A DNA stretch of 64,000 nt from a virus: IMG/VR virus record IMGVR_UViG_3300014834_000354, positions 1 to 64,000 of that record; one strand, given 5' to 3'. The first letter of the stretch is position 1; each line of letters opens with the position of its first letter. A program made the translations under genes and the position numbers. The notes under the pieces were generated by a model. The model had not been told where the DNA came from. It saw nothing but the letters and a program-made list of their open reading frames with translations, and searched no databases. Positions 26,895 through 36,386 of this stretch are shown one piece after another.

Positions 26895-27101
26895 TCAAAA
26901 TACGTCAAAATAGTCTCTTAGCGTATCTACGTACATATGCGCCTGAGAATCTTGTTCTAAAACGCCAGTCCTTTCAATTTGACGTATGGCATCTCTAAGA
27001 ATAAATTCTGCAAATTTTTCTAATTTTGTATGTTCGCCGGTAGGATTATAAGTCAATAATCCGGCTTCTGTTGCGAGCTGCTTGAACTTTTTATTATTCA
27101 T
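26895..27101 (-). CDS. KFAELIV-family small protein
   Basis: MNNKKFKQLATEAG / EKFAEFIL / LRDYFDV; start corrected to the ATG after GGAG. Confidence 0.7.
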   Translation of the reverse strand: MNNKKFKQLATEAGLLTYNPTGEHTKLEKFAEFILRDAIRQIERTGVLEQDSQAHMYVDTLRDYFDVF

Positions 27102-27435
27102 CGTTAACTCCAAATTTTGCTTTTAGCATTTTTTCAAAATGCAAGCTGAGGGCTACCGGATTGAAGCCACGCTCTTTGTTTGGGCCATATTCTCGAGTAA
27201 TTGATTGGAAGAGTTTCTCGCCAGCTGGCGTTCCAAAAACATTCCCATTTTCAAAATCTTCACATTCTAACCCAATTTGTTCTATGCACTTTTTCACGAT
27301 TGCTTCGGTAAATTTTTGAATGAAGCAATCTGGGATGTACATTTTTTCTAATTCTTCATTTAACGGATTGTTCTCATAAACGACGTCAATGTCAGAAATG
27401 ACGTCTTCCGTAATTTGCCTAATTAAACTATTCAT
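27094..27435 (-). CDS. KFAELIV-family small protein
   Basis: MNSLIRQ / QKFTEAIVKKC / LKAKFGV. Confidence 0.7.
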   Translation of the reverse strand: MNSLIRQITEDVISDIDVVYENNPLNEELEKMYIPDCFIQKFTEAIVKKCIEQIGLECEDFENGNVFGTPAGEKLFQSITREYGPNKERGFNPVALSLHFEKMLKAKFGVNDE

Positions 27436-27664
27436 CTGTGCTTATCCCAAGTGTCTCAGGGCTGTAATCAATCCAAAGTTTATCACCATCCTCATAGAGA
27501 TACGCATCCTCATCTGCAATTTCAAAACACAAATCAGATACCTTTAAGTCATAGTCCTTAAACATGCTAAGTTTATTTTCATCGTAAACTCTAATAAAAT
27601 AGCTATTATTGAGCGCTGAGTACATGAGAATGCCGAGCCGGCCAAGGGCAGGTTGTGATTTCAT
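27428..27664 (-). CDS. Hypothetical protein
   Basis: Start MKSQP is TAATG-coupled to the upstream ORF, with GGAG before it. Confidence 0.6.
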   Translation of the reverse strand: MKSQPALGRLGILMYSALNNSYFIRVYDENKLSMFKDYDLKVSDLCFEIADEDAYLYEDGDKLWIDYSPETLGISTDE

Positions 27665-27792
27665 TATTGAATACTCCAAATATGCGATGGCGGAAGCATG
27701 ATCAATGAATTACGCACATATTCATACGTGCCATACCTTTGGAATTCACTAGTAGAAAATCCATTAAATATTTTTACTGTCCATTGTTTCAT
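27664..27792 (-). CDS. 42-aa hypothetical protein (absent from the ORF track)
   Basis: MKQWTVKIFNGF...HIWSIQ* fills the gap exactly and is coupled to the next gene. Confidence 0.5.
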   Translation of the reverse strand: MKQWTVKIFNGFSTSEFQRYGTYEYVRNSLIMLPPSHIWSIQ

Positions 27793-27804
27793 GATAAGCG
27801 CCTA

Positions 27805-28104
27805 TTATTTTTTGTTTTCCAACTCATCGAGGTCTGCCGCTAGACGCTTAAGAAATTGTTCTTCACCATCATCGCCTGACACAAGCCAATCAATTCGCTG
27901 TGCATAAATTGTTGCCATACGCAATATTTTTAAACCCTTTTTAAATTCTTCAATAACTTCTGGCGAGTAATTCTGCACAAATGTATAATCATACCAATTT
28001 TCGCCTGTATTTTGTTCAACACCATTCATGATAATCAATTGTTCAACTTCATTAGCAATATTATCAATACGATATTGATCGTAGTCAAAATGGCCGCCGC
28101 TCAT
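27805..28104 (-). CDS. Hypothetical phage protein (MSGGHFDY...IDWLVSGDDGE)
   Basis: AAGGAG Shine-Dalgarno; the motif resembles a phage small-protein family. Confidence 0.7.
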   Translation of the reverse strand: MSGGHFDYDQYRIDNIANEVEQLIIMNGVEQNTGENWYDYTFVQNYSPEVIEEFKKGLKILRMATIYAQRIDWLVSGDDGEEQFLKRLAADLDELENKK

Positions 28105-28229
28105 GGCACTATCTCCTTATCTAAACACATATGTAGAATCCTATCATACTTTATGAAAAAAGTACAATACTTTTAGTCAGAGTTCTAATTTTCAGTCTTG
28201 GAATTGCGAACTATGATTTGTCTTACTTC

Positions 28230-28475
28230 TTATTCTACTTCAAACAAAATCTTTTCGTTCTCTACGCGAATACGAGTAATTTTGCGGCCATCAATCAGGC
28301 TGCCGAGGCCAATAAATGGCCCGCCGCTAGGATCCACAAATCCTAGGTCATTCCAGTCAATGTTAGGTTGACCTTCTCTACCACCGTATCTCCAATAATC
28401 AAGATCGCCGACGATAGTATAAACGTTTTCATCAACCTTTTCAAAATGATATTCATTTCCATGACGATTTTTCAT
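28230..28475 (-). CDS. Hypothetical phage protein (FVDPSGGPFI motif)
   Basis: DPSGGP motif; ends FEVE. Confidence 0.65.
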   Translation of the reverse strand: MKNRHGNEYHFEKVDENVYTIVGDLDYWRYGGREGQPNIDWNDLGFVDPSGGPFIGLGSLIDGRKITRIRVENEKILFEVE

Positions 28476-28692
28476 TTTTAGTCCCTGCTAGTTTTTGCAA
28501 TCTTTTGAGGTGAGGATATTTTACAATGAGATATTGTATCTTAAGTTTGTTATTGATTTCATAAACTTTTTCAACAACATTTGTGATTAGCGTGTATACG
28601 CATTGCACTATAACAAATATGTATCCCCAAAAACCATATAATATCCAGGATGAGTGGATAGATCTAAAGAATTTTTGAAAAATTTTATTCAT
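28453..28692 (-). CDS. Hypothetical membrane protein
   Basis: Single hydrophobic segment. Confidence 0.5.
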   Translation of the reverse strand: MNKIFQKFFRSIHSSWILYGFWGYIFVIVQCVYTLITNVVEKVYEINNKLKIQYLIVKYPHLKRLQKLAGTKNEKSSWK

Positions 28693-28695
28693 TGA

Positions 28696-28968
28696 TTAAA
28701 CGTCTTCATCTTCATGTAAAACATTCATAATATGAAATAACGCATCCACCGTTCCGCCGTTGCAACCTTGTAAATAACGCCTATCTTCAGGATCTGGTTG
28801 AGCCATAATGTCTGCATCATCAATCAGTTCTTCTCTCACTTTAGAATAAATTTCGTCAACCAGCGCCTCAGCATACTGGTGTAGAAATGGATCTAACACG
28901 TTGGCATCAAGTTGGTCATAGATTGTTGGATCAATCTGTTCAACACGTTCTTTAAGTTTTTTATTCAT
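28696..28968 (-). CDS. KFAELIV-family small protein (divergent)
   Basis: MNKKLKE / QYAEALVDE; coupled through the GGAGTTGAAGAATGA junction. Confidence 0.65.
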   Translation of the reverse strand: MNKKLKERVEQIDPTIYDQLDANVLDPFLHQYAEALVDEIYSKVREELIDDADIMAQPDPEDRRYLQGCNGGTVDALFHIMNVLHEDEDV

Positions 28969-29180
28969 TCTTCAACTCCAAAATGCTGTTTGATTTTATC
29001 GCCGATATAAGTGTAATTGCCAATATCGTTATAGGCCTTATTTCCTATATCTGCACATTCTCTGACAATCAATTCGGCGAACTTTTCTGTAACTTGAACA
29101 TCTTCTGATCCTGGAATATCCAACCAAAGATGATCGCCTAGACCAGCCTTTAGCGCAAGTTCTTTAAGTTTTTCATTCAT
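28965..29180 (-). CDS. KFAELIV-family small protein
   Basis: MNEKLKELALKAG / EKFAELIVRECA / IKQHFGVEE. Confidence 0.8.
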   Translation of the reverse strand: MNEKLKELALKAGLGDHLWLDIPGSEDVQVTEKFAELIVRECADIGNKAYNDIGNYTYIGDKIKQHFGVEE

Positions 29181-29434
29181 TCTTCAACCTCATCTTCAAC
29201 TCCGAAATGTTTCTTAATCTGTCTGGCAATGCGATATGCAGTATTGGTGCAACATGCATCACCGTCAGTAATATCATCTTCACTAACTTTAGCACATTTT
29301 CTCACAATCAACTCGGTCAACTTTTCTAAATCATCATAATGGATCCAACGACCGTGTTCATCTGGTTCCATTGATCCATCCATATCAAGATTAAATCTTA
29401 CCACTTCTGTTAGTTCTTTAAGTTTTTTATTCAT
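29177..29434 (-). CDS. KFAELIV-family small protein
   Basis: MNKKLKEL / EKLTELIVRKCA / IKKHFGVEDEVEE. Confidence 0.8.
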   Translation of the reverse strand: MNKKLKELTEVVRFNLDMDGSMEPDEHGRWIHYDDLEKLTELIVRKCAKVSEDDITDGDACCTNTAYRIARQIKKHFGVEDEVEE

Positions 29435-29652
29435 TCTTCAACTCCAAAATGTTCTAACACAGAATTACCACAACCTGGAGTGAAAAGTCCTACATTTTCA
29501 TTGGCAACCTTTGCACATTTTCTCACGATCAGCTCGGCGAACTTTTCTTCGTCTAATTCATACCCTTCAAAACTTGGAGCACCATTAAACGGGTCATTAC
29601 CCCAGATTTCTTTAGTAGCCTGCTCTTTAAGTTCACGAATTCGTTCGTTCAT
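29431..29652 (-). CDS. KFAELIV-family small protein
   Basis: MNERIREL / EKFAELIVRKCA / VLEHFGVEE. Confidence 0.8.
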   Translation of the reverse strand: MNERIRELKEQATKEIWGNDPFNGAPSFEGYELDEEKFAELIVRKCAKVANENVGLFTPGCGNSVLEHFGVEE

Positions 29653-29891
29653 TCTTCAACTCCGAAATGTTTTTTGATAGCGTCACCTTCTTCACTACGT
29701 TCCCAATCTTCGGCATCGGCGTAACGATCAAAATAAATCTTATCGCATACGTTGACACATTCCTCTACAATTAACCTAGCAAACTCCAGATTAAATACCT
29801 GGGTGAATTCTCTATCATGCAAACTTGCTGGCATATCAAGAGTTATTTTTTCTGCCTCTTTCTCTAATCGTTGTAGTAATTCTTCGTTCAT
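29649..29891 (-). CDS. KFAELIV-family small protein
   Basis: MNEELLQRL / EFARLIVEECVNVC / IKKHFGVEE. Confidence 0.8.
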   Translation of the reverse strand: MNEELLQRLEKEAEKITLDMPASLHDREFTQVFNLEFARLIVEECVNVCDKIYFDRYADAEDWERSEEGDAIKKHFGVEE

Positions 29892-30091
29892 TCTTCAACT
29901 CCGAAATGTTCCAACATCTTTTCTTTGACGAGGATTTCTTCACCGACAAAATCAAACTTATCTTCAACAAACTGAGCACATGCCCGAACAATCAACTCGG
30001 CAAATTCGTCAGCAACAGTCTGCCAGTTCATGGGATCTTTTGTGTGTTTCAATACAGATTCACGCCATAGTTCTTTAATTTGTTCGTTCAT
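29888..30091 (-). CDS. KFAELIV-family small protein
   Basis: MNEQIKEL / EFAELIVRACA / MLEHFGVEE. Confidence 0.8.
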   Translation of the reverse strand: MNEQIKELWRESVLKHTKDPMNWQTVADEFAELIVRACAQFVEDKFDFVGEEILVKEKMLEHFGVEE

Positions 30092-30321
30092 TATTCAACT
30101 CCAAAATGTTGTTTGATTGAATCACCAATACATTCAGCGGCCTTGCCCCATGCAGTGCCACGATATTCTTCAGTAACGCCAGCACATACACGAACAAGCC
30201 GCTCGACGAACTTTTGAAATTCGTCTTCTGTAAACTTGACGGAGTTTGGGCTTCCAGCAAATCCTTCGTAAAATTCTCCACCAGCCTGTTTAGCAAGTTG
30301 TTTGATTTGTTCGTTCATCAT
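30091..30321 (-). CDS. KFAELIV-family small protein (start corrected to MMNEQ)
   Basis: MNEQIKQLAKQAG / QKFVERLVRVCA / IKQHFGVE. The longer ORF start lies inside a promoter repeat. Confidence 0.8.
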   Translation of the reverse strand: MMNEQIKQLAKQAGGEFYEGFAGSPNSVKFTEDEFQKFVERLVRVCAGVTEEYRGTAWGKAAECIGDSIKQHFGVE

Positions 30322-30406
30322 TTTCAATCTTCCAAATGAATTGATCGATAGGCCTATTATACCATAAGCATGAGAAATATACACTAAAAATGTTGACTAG
30401 TTCACA
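30318..30406 (-). repeat. 89-bp promoter/leader direct repeat, copy 1 (GTGTAT-N17-TATAAT with TG extension)
   Basis: Near-identical to 31353-31441; runs up to the start codon. Confidence 0.8.
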
Positions 30407-30428
30407 CTAATCAATTTGGTGAACTTTG

Positions 30429-30764
30429 CTAAATCGGAAAAATCATCTCAGTGAAAACAGTATCCTCATGCATAATTTCAATGGTTGCGCCAAGTTCTCC
30501 TGCCTGCGCGATCAAGCTGCTGAGTACACCTTGTCCATACAGGTTAACCCCATAGTGTTCCTTGTGGCAGGTGTATGTAGACCCGCTGGCGCCGGAAAAA
30601 ACGTAGTAATTGTTTTCTTCTACTACACCGGTGATCCCCGAATTCATCTTCCATGAATCTCCTCCGGCGTAGCCGCCATACCAACATGCAAATACTTTGT
30701 ACACGATATTTTCACCGTGAGAAATCTTGATCACCACCCATCGGTCTGGCGTATAGTTACTCAT
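30429..30764 (-). CDS. Hypothetical phage protein (YTPDRWVVIKI...GGDSWKMNSGI)
   Basis: Resembles a small-protein family I recall from large phages. Confidence 0.7.
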   Translation of the reverse strand: MSNYTPDRWVVIKISHGENIVYKVFACWYGGYAGGDSWKMNSGITGVVEENNYYVFSGASGSTYTCHKEHYGVNLYGQGVLSSLIAQAGELGATIEIMHEDTVFTEMIFPI

Positions 30765-30775
30765 GTTTGTTTACT

Positions 30776-30982
30776 TTATTCAATCCCGAAATGATTCTTT
30801 AATTTGTAACCAATGCCATTTAAAGGACAGCTTGTTGGAGCTATTGTTTCATCTAGAGCTAGAGCGCATTTTTGAATAAGTAACTCGGCAAATTTTTCTA
30901 CAAATGCTGGATCTTGAGTCATCAAGTTTACGTCTACTGCCCGTGCACTTTCATACGCAAGTTTTTGAATTAGTTTATTCAT
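30776..30982 (-). CDS. KFAELIV-family small protein
   Basis: MNKLIQKLA / EKFAELLIQKCA / LKNHFGIE. Confidence 0.8.
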   Translation of the reverse strand: MNKLIQKLAYESARAVDVNLMTQDPAFVEKFAELLIQKCALALDETIAPTSCPLNGIGYKLKNHFGIE

Positions 30983-31005
30983 TGATTTCAGCAGACTCCC
31001 AAATC

Positions 31006-31356
31006 TCAGATCATTTCAAATTTGACGACGTAGCCCTTAGCTTCTGCTGCACTCATCCAGTCTCGAAGACATTTAACATGCTCTGTGGCTTCACACACTG
31101 TCTTAAAACCTACAGGTTCGCCTTCACCAAAGATGTCTTCATCAGCAAAGACTGGAACTTTTGTAGGATTGTTGCGGGCTTCAACCCATGCAATGTATGC
31201 AGCTGCAGGGTTTTCGGAAGCCAGGATACGGTTTGTTTCTTCAGTTCTGGTTTGCCATGCATCAAACTTAAGTCGCTGAACATCGTGGCCAATTGAACCA
31301 TCTGCCAGCTTAAAGAAGATTTCACGTTCAGCAACGATAAAAACATTCATGCTCAT
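31006..31356 (-). CDS. Hypothetical protein (start corrected to MSMNVF)
   Basis: Directly follows promoter repeat copy 2. Confidence 0.65.
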   Translation of the reverse strand: MSMNVFIVAEREIFFKLADGSIGHDVQRLKFDAWQTRTEETNRILASENPAAAYIAWVEARNNPTKVPVFADEDIFGEGEPVGFKTVCEATEHVKCLRDWMSAAEAKGYVVKFEMI

Positions 31357-31441
31357 TTTCAATCTTCCGAATGAATTAGTCAATAGACATATTATACCAT
31401 AAGCATGAGAAATGTACACTAAAAATGTTGACTAGTTCACA
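31353..31441 (-). repeat. 89-bp promoter/leader direct repeat, copy 2 (GTGTAC-N17-TATAAT)
   Basis: Near-identical to 30318-30406. Confidence 0.8.
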
Positions 31442-31543
31442 TTGTGACAGAGCATTTTTCTAATAAATGGCCTTCTCTCTGGCATGCTCTTCATCTAGAA
31501 GAATATCGTAGATCGCTATTCGCGGTATAAAGGTACTCCAAAA

Positions 31544-31551
31544 TATAAATA
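31544..31551 (+). promoter_or_regulatory. T4-type late promoter TATAAATA
   Basis: Exact match 36 nt upstream of the plus-strand gene at 31588. Confidence 0.65.
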
Positions 31552-31587
31552 ATACCAAGTTATAATTTTTGGAAGAAAGTATTAAAC

Positions 31588-32130
31588 ATGTTATTATGTG
31601 AACTAACCGAAAACAATGAGACATGGTATCACGGTTCAACCGCGGAAATAAAGCGATTTAATCTTGACAATGTTGGCAAAGCTGATGCAACAGATCAAGA
31701 AGGTCCAGGCATTTATTTAACGAACTCAATTGATGATGCGCTGCATTATGGTAATATTGTACACACCGTAAAAACAATTAGATCGCCAAGACTTGTTCCG
31801 GAAAAAAAATCATTTTCAATATTAACAATTAAAGAGCTAATTAATCTATCTCCGAATAAAGAAGATATTCTTCAGGACTGGGACCAAAAACCAGAAATTG
31901 CTATCGCAAAAGCATCAAGAGCAATATATGATCGCTGGGGTCCTAATAAATTTCGCGAAATGCTTGAACAGGTGTGGTACGATTTTTACAGAGAGACTCC
32001 AAAGGAGTGGTTGAATATTTTGACGACAAATCTTAAATATGATGGGTTTATTCTACCAAGTGCTGGCGTTAAACACTTCATCTGTTTTAATCCTGAGATA
32101 CTAGAAATTACTAAGGTAGAAAATTATTAA
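31588..32130 (+). CDS. ADP-ribosyltransferase-fold protein (HY-type), late, possibly virion-packaged
   Basis: WYHGS, GPGIYLT, A..YG, YDGFI...CFNP motifs; N-terminal LTE; only long plus-strand gene in the array. Confidence 0.6.
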   Translation: MLLCELTENNETWYHGSTAEIKRFNLDNVGKADATDQEGPGIYLTNSIDDALHYGNIVHTVKTIRSPRLVPEKKSFSILTIKELINLSPNKEDILQDWDQKPEIAIAKASRAIYDRWGPNKFREMLEQVWYDFYRETPKEWLNILTTNLKYDGFILPSAGVKHFICFNPEILEITKVENY

Positions 32131-32188
32131 TTTACTGCACACGTAAGCTGCTACTTAAAGCCTCAGCTAAAATAAATATTGTTTTGCA

Positions 32189-32383
32189 TTATTCTGTTCT
32201 TAGTAAAATCCACCTAGGCCCAAAAGATGATTCATTTACACGGTAAACAGCCATTCGAAACTTGCCCTTGTTTCTTACGATATATCGCTCAACATGATAG
32301 GCTGCCGAATGTAAGTCGTGTTCGAAAAAGTAAGTACTGAATCCAGAATTAATGTTTGTAATTTTAAATTCTTGCTTTTTCAT
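32189..32383 (-). CDS. Hypothetical protein
   Basis: ATGA-coupled to the FGVKE junction of the upstream gene. Confidence 0.55.
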   Translation of the reverse strand: MKKQEFKITNINSGFSTYFFEHDLHSAAYHVERYIVRNKGKFRMAVYRVNESSFGPRWILLRTE

Positions 32384-32574
32384 TCTTTAACCCCAAAATG
32401 TTCTTTAAGTTTTTCAACTAACTTGGGTCGACTAGCAAATTCTCCACCATTGCTGACAATATCAATGCATCTTTCAATAATCAATTCTGCAAATTTTTCT
32501 CTATCAAAGAAATAATACCCATGTTCCTTGGTTTCTGCACGTTCAATCATATTTCGTAAATTTTTATTCATCAT
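32380..32574 (-). CDS. KFAELIV-family small protein
   Basis: MNKNLRNM / EKFAELIIERC / LKEHFGVKE. Confidence 0.8.
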   Translation of the reverse strand: MMNKNLRNMIERAETKEHGYYFFDREKFAELIIERCIDIVSNGGEFASRPKLVEKLKEHFGVKE

Positions 32575-32915
32575 TTTTCCCAAATCATTCGAGCAATTTT
32601 AATTTCTTCTGCTGTCAACGACTCCTTATGTCGTTTCGGCACGTCACCGCGGACAAATTCGTAATCGCTCATTTCTGTTGCATGCCTGTCTCTTTTCAAC
32701 ATCTCTCGTCTAAATTCTCCTACTGTTTTTCCTACCCAAGCGGGACAAAAGGCCCAAGCAGGTATCCACCTCATACGGTTCATAGGCATGCCACCGTATG
32801 TGGCATTAGTTTGCAGATAATCACTTTGGCCCGTATAGATTAAGTTGAGTTGTCGAACCCAATCATCTTTTTCAATTTTGTCCAGGTCTTCTAGAATATT
32901 AACTGAGATCATCAT
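32571..32915 (-). CDS. Hypothetical protein
   Basis: 114-aa ORF, ATGA-coupled at both ends. Confidence 0.6.
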   Translation of the reverse strand: MMISVNILEDLDKIEKDDWVRQLNLIYTGQSDYLQTNATYGGMPMNRMRWIPAWAFCPAWVGKTVGEFRREMLKRDRHATEMSDYEFVRGDVPKRHKESLTAEEIKIARMIWEK

Positions 32916-33181
32916 TCAATTCCAAAACGTTTAATCATAGAACTGCGCACTTTACCACACGCACGATTATGTTCAGTGTCACCATTTCTAATAACTTCCC
33001 ATTCAGCGCATTTGATGCATTCGTTAACAATAAGCTCTGCGAATTTTTCTTCAAATCTTAATTGAAATTCATTGTCTTCCATATAATAGCCATATCTCTC
33101 ACAATCAGCAACATGTGAACGAGCATATTTTTTAGCTTGTTCGGAAAGTTCTTGAATTAACTGTTTTCCGATGTTCATCAT
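32912..33181 (-). CDS. KFAELIV-family small protein
   Basis: LIQELSEQA / EKFAELIVNECIKC / IKRFGIE. Confidence 0.8.
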   Translation of the reverse strand: MMNIGKQLIQELSEQAKKYARSHVADCERYGYYMEDNEFQLRFEEKFAELIVNECIKCAEWEVIRNGDTEHNRACGKVRSSMIKRFGIE

Positions 33182-33390
33182 TCAATTCCAAAATGTTCTT
33201 TTAACACGTAATTAACCTGATAATTTCCAAGTTCATTGTCGTACAGCACATCGCAACACCGTTTAACAATCAACTCACATAATTTTTTGGTGTACGCTGT
33301 ATGGAATTCTCCTCCAATGTCAACCGCGTCATCAGCATAGTCCTCTGCGTCATCTGCTAGCTGTTGCAACTGCTCATTTAAGGAATTCAT
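33178..33390 (-). CDS. KFAELIV-family small protein
   Basis: NEQLQQLA / KKLCELIVKRCC / LKEHFGIE. Confidence 0.8.
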   Translation of the reverse strand: MNSLNEQLQQLADDAEDYADDAVDIGGEFHTAYTKKLCELIVKRCCDVLYDNELGNYQVNYVLKEHFGIE

Positions 33391-33641
33391 GTTTGACTTT
33401 CCTCTTGCTGATAATAAGCATCACCAAAAACGTTATGCAGCATATCTCTAATTACTGCTTCTTGTTTCTTTTCTTTGATGTTGGAACAATAAACTGCCGA
33501 AATACACTTAGAAACAAGCAGCTCGGCGAATTTCTCTAATTCAAAATCGGCTCCCTTATATAAGTCCGCCATATCAGGGCAATTGCTTGGCATATGGCTC
33601 AAGCCAGCTTCTATTGCAAGTTTTTGAATTCGTCTGTTCAC
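33387..33641 (-). CDS. KFAELIV-family small protein
   Basis: MNRRIQKLAIEAG / EKFAELLVSKC / NVFG; GGAGG Shine-Dalgarno, GTG start. Confidence 0.8.
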   Translation of the reverse strand: MNRRIQKLAIEAGLSHMPSNCPDMADLYKGADFELEKFAELLVSKCISAVYCSNIKEKKQEAVIRDMLHNVFGDAYYQQEESQT

Positions 33642-33675
33642 AGTCAGCCTCCAGAATACATACCGTAGATTAACA

Positions 33676-33705
33676 ATTATACATTAAAAAATGTAAGATG
33701 TAAAC
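33676..33705 (-). promoter_or_regulatory. Early sigma70-type promoter GTTTACA-N17-TATAAT
   Basis: Exact 17-nt spacing, upstream of 33641. Confidence 0.75.
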
Positions 33706-33734
33706 ATGCCATTACGTAAACGCGTCTAATACGT

Positions 33735-33959
33735 TCATTCATTTACATACTGCCAATCATCGGGCCAGCTATCAGTATATCGCCATTTATACGCACTCCA
33801 GCGCATACCGTGTAGTTCAATTTCTCGTTCTGCTTTTCTTTCGTGAATATCTTGCAAAAGTATCATCTTATTTTCACAACGGTAAACAATTTCAACAAGC
33901 TTCGGCGCAGCTGGGTAGCGGCGCTGGATTGGGCCCGCAATTACAGGTACCCAGATCAT
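33735..33959 (-). CDS. Hypothetical protein
   Basis: AGGAG Shine-Dalgarno supplied by a KEHLGVK remnant. Confidence 0.6.
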   Translation of the reverse strand: MIWVPVIAGPIQRRYPAAPKLVEIVYRCENKMILLQDIHERKAEREIELHGMRWSAYKWRYTDSWPDDWQYVNE

Positions 33960-34019
33960 GATTTAACTCCTAAATGTTCTTTTGACATATAATGAACTTG
34001 ATAATTTTAAAATTGATTA

Positions 34020-34274
34020 TCATTTATGATGTCGTGTATCATAAATCAAAAAAATAAAATTGAATGTCAAAAGTCCGAATTCAACTTCTATAACTCGTTG
34101 ATGAAATGATCTAGGTGACATTATTTCAACGCTGGCTTTTATGATGTTATTACATCTCAATAACTGAAGTTCCCAATTTTTATCAGGAATGAATGTTTTG
34201 CCAGCCCACCACTTGATATTCGAAAAACCTATTTCTTTGAATGGATTTGAAATACAAAAATTTAATTTAATCAT
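34020..34274 (-). CDS. Hypothetical protein
   Basis: 84-aa ORF in the array. Confidence 0.6.
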   Translation of the reverse strand: MIKLNFCISNPFKEIGFSNIKWWAGKTFIPDKNWELQLLRCNNIIKASVEIMSPRSFHQRVIEVEFGLLTFNFIFLIYDTRHHK

Positions 34275-34300
34275 AGCATGCCTTTATTCAAACTAAAATA

Positions 34301-34340
34301 ACACGGAATCATCTATATTAATTTACAGATGATTCCGTGT
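34301..34340. terminator. Hairpin with a 14-bp perfect stem
   Basis: ACACGGAATCATCT-N12-AGATGATTCCGTGT downstream of the 34358 stop. Confidence 0.55.
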
Positions 34341-34357
34341 GTCAATTTGCTTTGTTG

Positions 34358-34570
34358 TTATTTCTTCTTTTTGCCAATTTTTGCAACAACAGCCGCTTTA
34401 CTCTGCAGCAGTTGATTTAACAGATGGCGGTAGGTGCGAGTCGCTGCGATGCTCATATCATCTTCTTTGCCTTCGAGCTCAGAGATCTTTTGAAGTAACT
34501 CTTGTTCTCGTGCCCGATGGCGTTCAACATCGGCGTTAACGCCCTTCACATCTCTATAGAAGTATTTCAT
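34358..34570 (-). CDS. Hypothetical coiled-coil protein
   Basis: GAGGTG Shine-Dalgarno; has its own promoter and hairpin. Confidence 0.65.
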   Translation of the reverse strand: MKYFYRDVKGVNADVERHRAREQELLQKISELEGKEDDMSIAATRTYRHLLNQLLQSKAAVVAKIGKKKK

Positions 34571-34597
34571 GATGCACCTCTTTCAATCAATATGGTA

Positions 34598-34627
34598 ATT
34601 GTATCATATACTAATTTATATGTAAAC
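34598..34627 (-). promoter_or_regulatory. Early promoter GTTTACA-N17-TACAAT (TG-extended)
   Basis: Exact spacing, upstream of 34570. Confidence 0.7.
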
Positions 34628-34717
34628 AATTTTATGCGCCTGAATGTAGGCTGAGGAACATCTGGTTTGGGGTGTTACTTGGATTTTACCTTGTAGGCGC
34701 TGAAGAATGGCACAAAT

Positions 34718-34882
34718 TCAATCTCTCGAATTGTCTGCAAGTTGCTGTCTTAGTTTTTTGATTTCTTGAAGACTTTCCTCAAGTAACCGCATTGCCTCTC
34801 CCCAATATAAATCGGCGAAAGTGTCATAGCATGCGAATTCCAACTTTTCTACAATATCGTTTGAGCCATGATAACCATCCAT
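34718..34882 (-). CDS. 54-aa hypothetical protein (DIVEKL...EIKKLR; absent from the ORF track)
   Basis: AGGAGG Shine-Dalgarno; MDGYHGSNDIVEKLEF...NSRD*. Confidence 0.6.
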   Translation of the reverse strand: MDGYHGSNDIVEKLEFACYDTFADLYWGEAMRLLEESLQEIKKLRQQLADNSRD

Positions 34883-34899
34883 ACAGCGTGCCTCCTAAC

Positions 34900-35121
34900 T
34901 CAACTGTTATCTTTAAACATTTGGCGCATTGCGCCTGCACATTCGGTTGGATGCATGTCCCTTTTTCCAAATCTATCACATAGTTCAGCACACTGTTCAG
35001 TGATCAATTGCGTGAATTTTTCCATTTGCTCTGGGGTCATGACATACACCGGTTCATACCAATCTGTTGACTTAGAAGTCTGCTTTGCAGCTTTGATCAT
35101 TTCTTTTATGAGATAATTCAT
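34900..35121 (-). CDS. KFAELIV-family small protein
   Basis: MNYLIKEM / EKFTQLITEQCAELC / MRQMF. Confidence 0.75.
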   Translation of the reverse strand: MNYLIKEMIKAAKQTSKSTDWYEPVYVMTPEQMEKFTQLITEQCAELCDRFGKRDMHPTECAGAMRQMFKDNS

Positions 35122-35138
35122 TGTTAGTCTCTTTAAAA

Positions 35139-35426
35139 TTACAGTAAAGTTTTTTCAATATGTTGGGCTACGTCTTCAGCATCAACCGCCCGAACTGTAT
35201 AACACTGCCGCGCAGTATATGCGCATTTCTCAATAATCATATTAGCAAATCTAATTTGATTCTGATGTATTTTGTCAAAAATACGACTTCTCACTTCTGC
35301 AGGCTGTTCATTCCACGCTTCAGCAATTTTAACACTAACTTCACTGTCATTGCACAACATTTCTGCGAATAAGGTGCCAGCATCCACGTATGCTCTTGAC
35401 ATTAGTTCTTCAATCTGTTTATTCAT
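35139..35426 (-). CDS. KFAELIV-family small protein (start corrected to MNKQIEEL)
   Basis: GGAGG Shine-Dalgarno; RFANMIIEKCA. Confidence 0.7.
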   Translation of the reverse strand: MNKQIEELMSRAYVDAGTLFAEMLCNDSEVSVKIAEAWNEQPAEVRSRIFDKIHQNQIRFANMIIEKCAYTARQCYTVRAVDAEDVAQHIEKTLL

Positions 35427-35538
35427 CTTTGCGTCCTCCAGTTTGTTAATTTTTGTACTTACCGCACCTACATAATACCCCACACAAATACCAGAGCACC
35501 ACCAATCACCATACCAATTAATGACCACAGAGTTGATT

Positions 35539-35784
35539 TCATTTTAGCTCCTTAATACGGTTTTCAATCATTTCAACGCACCATAAAATAACTTGTTCTT
35601 GAGTTGGTGGCACAATATTCCTTATATGTTGTGCATCATAACATGCGCGAATACACTCTCTCATGACTAATTCTGCGAACTTTTTACGCCAATCGTCATA
35701 TTTGACTGTGCCTGTGCCTAATTTTGCTATTTCTGCCCAGCACTGTTTTTCAAGTTGATCGAGGTCAAAAGTCATCTCATCCAT
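35539..35784 (-). CDS. KFAELIV-family small protein
   Basis: KKFAELVMRECIRAC. Confidence 0.75.
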   Translation of the reverse strand: MDEMTFDLDQLEKQCWAEIAKLGTGTVKYDDWRKKFAELVMRECIRACYDAQHIRNIVPPTQEQVILWCVEMIENRIKELK

Positions 35785-36025
35785 GATTCACTCCAAAATA
35801 GTCTTTAATGTCATCTGCACAATTCTCAGCGGCATCGTTATAATACTGCGCTGCTGCACCATCTTCAGGCGGGCAATATCCGGTATAGCGTACATTACTG
35901 CAAATTTTAACACACTGCTTAATTAAAGAAACTGCGAAACGCTCTATAATAAAATCAGGAACCGTCCATACTCCTGCCGTCAATTCGGCTTCATCTGCAA
36001 GTTTTTTAATATTTTCATTCATCAT
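35777..36025 (-). CDS. KFAELIV-family small protein
   Basis: MNENIKKLADEA / ERFAVSLIKQCVKIC / IKDYFGV. Confidence 0.8.
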   Translation of the reverse strand: MMNENIKKLADEAELTAGVWTVPDFIIERFAVSLIKQCVKICSNVRYTGYCPPEDGAAAQYYNDAAENCADDIKDYFGVNHG

Positions 36026-36303
36026 TCGATGCCTTCAAGCCAATTGAAAATCGTAATTACGTTATCTACCGAATTTGCCCACCGATCAAATTCATCTTTT
36101 GGGCAACTCATGTCGACAAAAAATTCATCATTCCACCACCGAAACCTATATAGCCTACCTTTATACTGTGCAATAGAACCATTTTTGAAAAAGCTTCGTT
36201 CTATCTTATATCCACGTCTTTTTAATAAAGTTTTGAATTCGCTTGCGCTAAAACCGTGTAGCTGTTTGCGAGTCGGCTTTGGTTGTGTATATTTGAATTT
36301 CAT
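36022..36303 (-). CDS. Hypothetical basic protein
   Basis: Start MKFKY after GGTG; TG-extended TATAAT at 36337-36342. Confidence 0.6.
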   Translation of the reverse strand: MKFKYTQPKPTRKQLHGFSASEFKTLLKRRGYKIERSFFKNGSIAQYKGRLYRFRWWNDEFFVDMSCPKDEFDRWANSVDNVITIFNWLEGIE

Positions 36304-36386
36304 AAATCTCACCAAATCAACAATATGTAATAATGAATTATACCATAATTCTCACGTAGGTTGACGATAATTTGTATACTTTATTT

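Follow-up and report, generated by a model that had tools for sequence, protein, structure and literature searches.

The mini-gene array and its repeated 21-mer

The window, meaning the whole stretch of 64,000 nucleotides of viral DNA that was analysed, carries six family mini-genes in tandem on the minus strand (28965..30321), recognized from the ORF list, HMM membership and their tails. These genes (30091-30321, 29888-30091, 29649-29891, 29431-29652, 29177-29434 and 28965-29180) overlap one another as ATGA or TAATG. An 89-nt promoter-plus-RBS cassette (repeat D7) lies at the head of the run on the same strand (30318..30406), and a second copy with 92% identity (31353-31441) stands before an unrelated gene.

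A search of the window for CATTTYGGAGTTGAAGAATGA on the minus strand found exact copies at 28965-28985, 29431-29451, 29649-29669 and 29888-29908, and near-copies at 30088-30108 (one mismatch), 40293-40313 and 32380-32400 (two each) and 33175-33195 (three). The eight matches compare with 0.02 expected, and none of 100 shuffles gave eight. All six minus-strand sites listed by the first-pass annotation were found again; the variants at 32380-32400 and 33175-33195 are additional to that list, as are a duplicated tail and a decayed copy described below. Each copy encodes H-F-G-V-E-E-stop or a near variant at the C-terminus of an ORF of 64-97 aa, with GGAG 7 nt 5' of the next ATG and that ATG overlapping the TGA (ATGA; TAATG at 30088), just as had been read from the window alone. 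No promoter or terminator was found at the 21-mers; the junction block is wholly coding sequence and start codon.

All tail copies described here are on the minus strand. Within the tandem run, the exact copy at 28965..28985 ends gene 28965-29180 as HFGVEE-TGA and starts ORF 28696-28968 through GGAG-N7-ATG, and that at 29431..29451 ends gene 29431-29652 and starts 29177-29434. Two more exact copies, both the TTC variant, end 29649-29891 and start 29431-29652 (29649..29669), and end 29888-30091 and start 29649-29891 (29888..29908); similarity to a related viral locus, L080, stops at the latter. The variant at 30088..30108 reads HFGVE-TAA with a 1-nt overlap (TAATG), and its GGAG-N7-ATG starts gene 29888-30091. 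The duplicated tail, HFGVEDEVEE (29177..29209), contains a 9-12 nt internal duplication that restores GAGG-N7-ATG for gene 28965-29180.

Outside the run, the ATGA of non-family ORFs 32189-32383 and 32571-32915 is provided by HFGVKE with Gly GGG and a GGGG core (32380..32400) and by RFGIE with GGA ATT (32912..32929), respectively. HFGIE, likewise with GGA ATT (33178..33195), starts family gene 32912-33181, and HFGLE with Gly GGG (37522..37542) starts ORF 37361-37525, again through ATGA in both cases. Two longer tails keep GGAG-N6-ATG because the next ATG has moved upstream: KFGVNDE (27094..27117; ATG at 27101) and YFGVNHG (35777..35800; ATG at 35784, upstream of the stop). The decayed copy (33956..33978) is a non-coding remnant of the 3' end of a family gene, with 79% identity to 33175-33240, and still gives AGGAG-N7-ATG to ORF 33735-33959. 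HFGVEQ (40293..40313) sets GGAG-N7-ATG(A) at 40296, and this ATG is likely the true start (MTLRK...) of the large ORF 38863-40329. The uncoupled copy at 30776..30793 (HFGIE, Gly GGG, TAA stop, 11-nt gap to the next ATG) has lost the Shine-Dalgarno (SD) core and retained the protein motif; all other tail copies in the window have overlapping stop and start codons.

A large family of phage mini-proteins

The 21-mer forms the 3' constant block in a family of ~70-aa proteins that is very large and undescribed. By HMM, 29 members reside on the 101-kb freshwater phage contig, whose phage is present in river and lake populations. Related loci, collected with a fully degenerate DNA pattern for EKFAELIV, bring the family in viral loci to 415 members at 141 loci, and public data hold 9,002 representative clusters. 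Members are laid out as an N-terminal block (MNERIKELAxxAG), a variable segment V1, the central block EKFAELIVRECA, a second variable segment V2 and the tail IKxHFGVEE, the constant blocks being ~25-65 nt long. An example of the central block lies at 29285..29327 on the minus strand (EKxxELIVRKCA; repeat family D2, nine copies in 29046-37657). The heptamer GAGTTGA occurs in both the central and the tail block, though not in the same frame, with a chance estimate of ~3%, and is left uninterpreted.

No match came from megablast or tblastn searches of 50,697 phage records, eight members had no significant hit in Pfam or PHROGs, and Foldseek against the PDB gave no fold match at E<=0.001; family matches in the ESM Atlas were viral hypothetical clusters only. 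In a confident AlphaFold2 model (pLDDT 93.6), helix 59-73 ends at Phe, followed by Gly, which is predicted to cap this last helix. As protein, the tail would end the helix, with Phe packing into the fold, Gly capping and a short acidic tail following. Phe is present in 328 of 333 tails and His in 273 of 333; both are nearly invariant and lie outside the SD core. Uncoupled copies hold Phe-Gly with GGT or GGG. With these observations and the modelled cap, the initial suggestion that the motif may be conserved for translational coupling rather than for protein function finds no support.

The tail as a probable Shine-Dalgarno site and start codon

The tail Gly codon is GGA in 272 of 295 non-redundant family tails from the 141 loci (92%), against 28% elsewhere in those genes and 26% in 52 long ORFs. 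The predominance of GGA anticipated by the first-pass annotation is therefore borne out, and the adjoining Phe codon varies freely (TTC 172, TTT 123). Stop and start overlap as ATGA in 209 of these tails and by 1 nt in 22. Long genes of the phage carry GGAG or AGGA at N5-8, an SD geometry that GGAG-N7-ATG fits; the 267 coupled tails place GGAG at N7 in 228 cases and at N4 in 26.

Comparison of coupled with uncoupled copies, also proposed at the outset, separates the two classes. GGA drops from 253/267 coupled tails (95%) to 19/28 uncoupled tails (68%, p=5.7e-5) and, with one tail per V2 cluster, from 205/216 to 19/27 (p=2.7e-4); because the sequences are related, these p-values overstate independence, for which the per-cluster counts are a partial correction. 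The split uses a cut-off of 20 aa for the downstream ORF; an earlier split at >=40 aa gave a weak contrast (p=0.10), and the cut-off was lowered because many tails it classed as uncoupled feed hydrophobic mini-ORFs of 23-39 aa. The Val:Ile ratio shifts from 240:18 in coupled to 17:7 in uncoupled tails (p=0.002), and the spacer GAA from 98% to 73%. No relaxation in uncoupled tails was found for His CAT and Val GTT, with Val GTT at 87% against 42%.

Copies that depart from the standard form, whether displaced, substituted, out of frame or non-coding, all have an SD core at N6-7. In longer tails the next ATG has moved upstream (27094, 35777) or a fresh GAGG or GGAG stands at N7 (29177 in the window; loci L101, L112 and L102). 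Tails in which Gly is substituted retain the SD core at N6-7 through E-V, R-G, K-E or P-E codons. The DNA block is preserved out of frame (..RTFRS*) after at least four unrelated V2s, and as non-coding DNA past a stop at loci L145 and L013 and at 33956-33978 in the window. Junction RNA is unstructured (z-scores of -0.6 to +1.1 for six junctions against shuffles). RNA-library contigs from three studies run through four junctions without a single difference, contaminating DNA being a possible source of these contigs. Apparent sequence joints, with sides of at most 35 nt at 88% likeness, were ascribed to other family members and not to deletion variants.

These statistics support the proposal that the tail bases also act as the SD and start of the next cistron. 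GGAG is made of the Gly codon GGA and the first G of Val, followed by a 7-nt A-rich spacer (TTGAAGA) and an AUG overlapping the UGA stop. Given this arrangement, sequence statistics suggest that the downstream gene is translated via termination-reinitiation, direct SD-led initiation, or both.

Synonymous constraint, likewise put forward as a check with the original idea, is present in the tail, but it is non-discriminating on its own because synonymous sites in the N-terminal and central blocks are just as strongly biased toward rare codons (GCC 76%, GAG 82%, TTG 79% and CGA 86%). Since these two blocks are equally biased, much of the DNA conservation of the tail is not explained by the RBS.

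Recombination at the constant blocks

Reassortment of the half-gene modules V1 and V2 is almost complete, and similarity ends at two places, the central block and the ATGA junction. Pairs sharing the same V1 also share V2 in only 9 of 163 cases, and the corresponding count across the junction is 0/9; among the 48 V1 clusters that recur, 44 are joined to two or more V2 clusters. Of the HSPs with at least 80% identity, 192 are confined to one V1 and 107 to one V2, with blocks as their bounds, whereas 27 take in whole genes and 4 run from V2 into V1 across a junction. The mosaic between the window and L080 breaks in the central block and at ATGA, the same downstream gene follows different V2s in 8 of 14 pairs, and two proteins, P0042 and P0091, look like unequal-crossover products. 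At 159 family/non-family junctions, conservation ends exactly after ATGA. The central block, lying within the gene, is a boundary of the same rank, which makes the half-gene the exchanged unit. Block identity within a locus is not above that between loci, in a comparison confounded by how the loci were found; the blocks being no more alike within than between loci, there is no sign of concerted evolution or of intragenomic gene conversion, and the comparison was set aside. DGR-type hypermutation was ruled out, since identical V1 and V2 modules recur in different combinations.

Recombination is evident from these comparative mosaics, and the enzymology behind it is surmised. The tail and the N-terminal block of the next gene together make up one of the constant DNA blocks, itself conserved synonymously, where homologous recombination has probably reassorted half-genes and downstream genes, and any crossover within this block would leave the RBS and start of the downstream gene intact. 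A more far-reaching proposal, offered tentatively and on balance doubtful, is that the three constant blocks are evolved recombination linkers for the combinatorial diversification of phage early mini-proteins. V1, V2 and neighbouring genes would be exchanged via short-homology recombination across a shared environmental pool, the junction would be built for automatic translation of crossover products, and rare-codon conservation would reflect selection for recombinability beyond protein or RBS function.

Weighing the explanations

The best explanation, with a probability of about 0.7, is that the tail is a dual-use block, serving as the end of one protein and probably as the RBS and start of the next gene, and that it also acts as a recombination linker. 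A motif selected as protein only, with DNA identity left over from recent duplication or shared ancestry and GGAG-N7-ATGA arising as an unselected by-product of the G-V-E-E-stop codons, would account for the conservation of H-F-G in uncoupled copies as well and for GGA remaining at 68%, far over background, where no gene is coupled. That the DNA itself is conserved in all three constant blocks makes a contribution from ancestry or recombination clear. This reading is nevertheless unlikely: GGA reaches 95% against a 28% background while the adjacent Phe codon drifts freely, relaxation where no gene follows is specific to the SD core and spacer, compensatory SDs arise when the tail is displaced or Gly substituted, and the block persists both out of frame and outside coding sequence. 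Those same out-of-frame and post-stop copies, which indicate that some members dispense with the peptide, fit a pure RNA signal in which the HFGVEE residues are merely what the RBS encodes, as does a tendency toward G-[VE]-x-x endings ahead of ATGA among the non-family genes of these phages. Such a signal is very unlikely to be the whole account, as His and Phe, 5' of the SD core, are the best-conserved residues, uncoupled copies retain H-F-G-[VI] yet switch to GGT or GGG, and the model places Phe in the last helix and Gly at its cap with pLDDT above 90. Other tails build their SD cores with a wide range of residue pairs, and an RBS therefore does not need HFGVEE.

T4 RegB cuts GGAG within the SDs of early genes, and the junction GGAG might, additionally or instead, be the target of a RegB-like phage endoribonuclease that inactivates early mRNAs, a second constraint at the RNA level. 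The array does stand behind sigma70-like promoters in a T4-like giant phage, but this role is distinctly unlikely: the incomplete contig yielded no RegB homologue, the control genomes were uninformative, and the RBS role alone accounts for GGA relaxation in uncoupled copies. The first-pass annotation had also likened the junction to an integron-style cassette boundary. As a recombination boundary it is real, given the mosaics and reassortment; the genes flanking it are reassorted between phages and conservation stops sharply at ATGA, as cutting and joining by a dedicated site-specific recombinase would predict. The integron-like part of the claim fails, and such a mechanism is extremely improbable. 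Neither a tyrosine recombinase (PF00589) nor a reverse transcriptase was found on the 101-kb contig, itself ~28% of the genome; the junction lacks an inverted repeat or stable attC-type hairpin, with six junctions folding no better than shuffles and a logo free of palindromes; the central block inside the gene breaks equally often; and the block-duplicated proteins resemble unequal homologous crossovers.

Relation to known systems

An SD inside an upstream gene reportedly constrains that gene's synonymous codons, a point said to go back to Eyre-Walker in 1996. Overlapping ATGA or TAATG gene pairs with an intragenic SD motif are coupled by termination-reinitiation (Huber et al. 2019, PMC6728339), and the junctions described here resemble them in the 4-nt or 1-nt stop/start overlap, the SD in the 3' end of the upstream ORF and the normal spacing. 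Unlike those pairs, one fixed SD-bearing peptide tail is common to hundreds to thousands of paralogues, with coupling predicted from sequence, and the tail block survives out of frame or as non-coding DNA.

The closest analogues are found in T4-type phages, namely PeSL cassettes and gp38 GRM/HVS shuffling. PeSLs are mobile regulatory cassettes (Arbiol et al. 2010, PMC2839356; Comeau et al. 2014, PMC4122927). Like them, the blocks are short, conserved signals for expression that recur between small early genes of a non-essential kind, and they offer homology for modular shuffling, with reassortment of neighbours and modules breaking at the blocks; because such signals act as the shuffling homology, each recombinant stays expressed. 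A separate promoter cassette of this kind is present in the window (30318-30406, 31353-31441). PeSLs, however, are intergenic promoter-plus-terminator units, whereas the junction combines coding sequence with a translational signal and contains neither promoter nor stem-loop, and a second boundary lies inside the gene. In the gp38 adhesin, conserved glycine-rich motifs separate hypervariable segments (Trojet et al. 2011, PMC3157838), and here too constant scaffold motifs alternate with interchangeable hypervariable segments in one small phage protein. The family differs from gp38 in fold and in motifs, which are unrelated and not glycine-rich; the searches of Pfam, PHROGs and PDB folds gave no homology, and an adhesin role is without support. 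Unlike gp38, the family is present dozens of times per genome, in arrays, and the RBS of the next gene is embedded in its terminal block. As with integron gene cassettes, ORFs that lack promoters move as units and rely on upstream signals for their expression, but in contrast to attC/IntI systems exchange is seemingly homologous and also occurs within genes.

Implications

An SD embedded in an upstream gene is textbook biology. Here the SD appears fixed in the conserved C-terminus of a phage protein family that ranks among the largest unannotated ones in these data. The family supplies natural replicates by the hundred, in the form of copies that are coupled, uncoupled, displaced, frame-shifted or non-coding, and with them selection on the protein can be told apart from selection on the RNA for the same bases. 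Annotators can rely on the block to mark where genes end and where they truly start, as at the likely ATG at 40296 of the large downstream gene; assemblies are also known to break at it. The junction and the central block mark module exchange, making Botstein-type "linker" recombination testable at sub-gene resolution in abundant freshwater phages.

A new family of phage mini-proteins

The 21-mer that encodes H-F-G-V-E-E-stop recurs, as the first-pass annotation held, and does so far above chance. A motif search of the window's minus strand returns eight matches against 0.02 expected, with exact copies at 28965, 29431, 29649 and 29888 and variants at 30088, 32380, 33175 and 40293. Each copy ends an ORF of 64-97 aa in H-F-G-V-E-E-stop or a near variant. 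The GGAG within it is formed by the Gly codon GGA and the G of the Val codon, and lies 7 nt upstream of the next ATG, which overlaps the stop codon as ATGA or, at 30088, as TAATG. The large ORF listed from GTG 40329 (minus strand) most likely starts instead at ATG 40296 in such an ATGA overlap (MTLRK...), because GGAG-N7 stands upstream.

These ORFs belong to a new mini-protein family. Iterated HMM searches find 29 members on the 101-kb IMG/VR virus contig whose first 64 kb are the window (completeness estimate, 28%), all on the minus strand and 23 of them within 26895-41780. The layout runs from an N-block (MNERIKELAxxAG) through a variable segment V1, a central block (EKFAELIVRECA) and a second variable segment V2 to the tail (IKxHFG[VI]E(E)). 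The family has no match in Pfam or PHROG, among phage records or among PDB folds. Searched with the family profile, a set of 1.84 billion representative proteins yields 9,002 clusters at E<=1e-3, of which 1,351 reach E<=1e-10, and ESM Atlas neighbours are viral hypothetical proteins throughout. The window also has genes for a PolB polymerase, a DnaB-like helicase and structural proteins of baseplate-wedge-like type. Array DNA turns up in freshwater metagenomes, river and lake among them, from at least 17 studies. Downstream of the last exact 21-mer, a 90-aa ORF (28696-28968, minus strand) begins with the N-block-like MNKKLKE and contains the central-block-like YAEALVDEI; it scores under the family HMM threshold and may be a highly diverged member.

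A larger sample combines a protein-seeded scan with a fully degenerate DNA pattern for E-K-F-A-E-L-I-V, which introduces no bias in codon choice. Together they yield 141 viral loci (1.34 Mb). Of the 415 family members in them, 367 are unique when CDS and context are taken together.

The tail as a probable ribosome-binding site

The tail probably doubles as the ribosome-binding site of the next gene, as first proposed. Long genes of this phage carry GGAG or AGGA 5-8 nt upstream of ATG, and the Shine-Dalgarno (SD) spacing in coupled tails, those at which the next gene starts, is 7 nt in 228/267 and 4 nt in 26/267. GGA, expected on this proposal to dominate the tail Gly codon, is used in 272/295 tails (92%), compared with 28% in the remainder of the same genes and 26% over 52 long contig ORFs; GGT falls to 3% from a background of about 40%. 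The adjacent Phe codon is free to vary (172 TTC, 123 TTT).

The proposed comparison of coupled tails with those at operon ends points the same way. An initial split requiring a downstream ORF of >=40 aa was misleading, because many tails feed hydrophobic mini-ORFs of 23-39 aa, and was replaced by a 20-aa cut-off. Gly is then GGA in 253/267 coupled copies (95%) and 19/28 uncoupled copies (68%; p = 5.7e-5), or 205/216 and 19/27 with one copy per V2 cluster (p = 2.7e-4). The Val:Ile ratio after Gly moves from 240:18 to 17:7 (p = 0.002) and GAA as the first spacer Glu codon from 98% to 73%, while CAT for His (95% and 96%) and GTT for Val (87% and 88%) do not change; thus only the SD core and the spacer relax.

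Altered tails retain the signal by several routes. Longer tails at 27094 and 35777 place the next ATG upstream and keep GGAG-N6, and others gain a new GAGG or GGAG at N7, including an HFGVEDEVEE duplication (29177) and tails in three of the sampled loci (L101, L112 and L102). Where Gly is substituted, by E-V (GAG GTN), R-G (AGA GGT), K-E (AAG GAG) or P-E (CCG GAG), an SD core remains at N6-7 in every listed case. At least four unrelated V2 segments run out of frame into the intact DNA block, giving proteins that end ..RTFRS*, and in L145 and L013 the block lies after a stop codon. A decayed 3' family-gene fragment (33956-33978, minus strand; within 33956-34021, which is 79% identical to 33175-33240) sits outside any intact ORF, between ORFs 34020-34274 and 33735-33959, and still supplies AGGAG-N7-ATG to the latter.

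RNA across the junctions shows no more structure than shuffled sequence does. In window 28900-30400, RNA-library contigs (718-932 nt; three studies) run across four junctions without a single difference, which is compatible with polycistronic transcription but not proof of it. Overlapping gene pairs with an intragenic SD form a known class, to which the tail belongs as a ribosome-binding site; their known mechanism is termination-reinitiation helped by that SD (PMC6728339).

The mini-ORFs ATGA-coupled to tails in L059, L046, L132, L078, L108, L092, L114 and other loci of related phages are strongly hydrophobic and resemble single transmembrane helices; at 23-39 aa they would escape usual gene-length cut-offs. 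At L011:119-332, a tail ending HFGVK (GGA GTT, TAA) is followed directly by tRNA-like sequence, not a coupled ORF.

Protein-level and block-level constraint

The further suggestion that the motif is conserved for translation rather than for protein function does not stand. Phe (328/333) and His (273/333) are the most conserved residues of the tail, and both precede the SD core on its 5' side; H-F-G-[VI] persists in uncoupled copies with GGT or GGG (e.g., window 30776, L119, L065, L080 and L088). SD cores can be made from many residue pairs, so HFGVEE is not needed for one. An AlphaFold2 model of a member (pLDDT 93.6) has a helix at 4-12, a hairpin and helices at 32-53 and 59-73; the motif Phe lies at the end of the last helix, with Gly directly after it as a predicted helix cap. 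Statistics and model together suggest dual constraint on the tail bases, from protein and ribosome binding, and all functional statements on the tail and family derive from sequence statistics.

Column-wise codon analysis reveals equal bias in the N-block and central block, toward codons that are rare in the genome. N-block Arg is CGA in 86% (family background, 30%; contig long ORFs, 12%) and Leu is CTT in 64% (22%; 18%). In the central block, Ala is GCC in 76% (27%; 15%), Glu GAG in 82% (20%; 20%), Leu TTG in 79% (31%; 19%) and Lys AAG in 82% (family background, 35%). Tail Val is GTT in 87% against 42%. This GTT excess and the 68% GGA that persists in uncoupled copies are part of a general block-level conservation, and the ribosome-binding site would account for only part of the conservation of block DNA. 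The heptamer GAGTTGA arises from the rare codons used in both the central block (GCC GAG TTG ATT; e.g., window 29969-30011) and the tail (GGA GTT GAA; e.g., 29888-29908), in different reading frames, with a chance estimate of roughly 3%.

Exchange of half-genes

The unit exchanged among these genes is the half-gene. V1 and V2 clusters are close to linkage equilibrium: distinct genes with the same V1 cluster share V2 in 9/163 pairs, and of 48 recurring V1 clusters 44 are found with two or more V2 clusters. Inter-locus BLASTN HSPs at >=80% identity cover a single V1 bounded by blocks in 192 cases, a single V2 so bounded in 107, a whole gene in 27 and V2 plus V1 across a junction in 4, and HSP ends accumulate at block edges. 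Linkage is broken about equally per opportunity at the junction (4/98) and the central block (27/395); concordance across family-to-family junctions is 0/9.

Individual genes illustrate the pattern. Gene 29888-30091 has its central block, V2 and tail in common with an L080 gene at about 85% identity; V1 and all sequence beyond the ATGA are unrelated. For gene 30091-30321, 11 loci have in common only the N-block, V1 and central block, and its V2 is reused behind other V1s in five family proteins (P0006, P0008, P0013, P0019 and P0023). The same non-family downstream gene follows different V2 clusters in 8/14 pairs. Junction logos are conserved over positions -26 to +38 where the downstream gene is a family member, and only over -26 to +4 where it is unrelated (159 junctions). 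P0042 and P0091, in which a V1-plus-central-block unit is duplicated, and P0031, in which two family units are fused in frame, look as if they arose by unequal crossover at the constant blocks.

Short-read contigs end at junction blocks (28956-76, 29422-42, 29645-66 and 29881-910; runs X8, X9, X13 and X18). Depth in a lake DNA run peaks on constant blocks, a sign that this water contains many further members of the family.

Relation to known cassette systems

Of the earlier comparison with integron cassettes, the recombination boundary at the junction stands and the integron-like nature does not: the incomplete 101-kb contig has no detected integrase, and RNA folding against shuffles finds no attC-like hairpin at the junctions. 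Reverse transcriptase and RegB were likewise not found on this contig. Identical modules recur in different combinations, which rules out DGR-type hypermutation.

Promoter cassettes also occur. An 89-nt repeat (30318-30406 and 31353-31441, minus strand; 92% identity) has both a ribosome-binding site and a promoter-like site with an extended -10 (TGGTATAAT); one copy precedes the family gene that heads the array, the other an unrelated gene. Its placement is genuinely like that of PeSLs, the mobile regulatory cassettes of T4-type phages. Tails ending GAATAA at L109:429-678, L109:1417-1609 and L140:9835-10042 are followed by one and the same promoter-like cassette, CCCTACAGG-TTGACA-N17-TATTAT/TATACT, which looks like a mobile early-promoter unit that has been inserted immediately behind the tail.

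The shuffling of the family works like that of PeSL cassettes (PMC2839356, PMC4122927) and of the motif and hypervariable segment (GRM/HVS) design of gp38 (PMC3157838). Unlike in either system, the linker is coding sequence as well as a probable translational signal and half a gene is the unit exchanged, in a family that is new.
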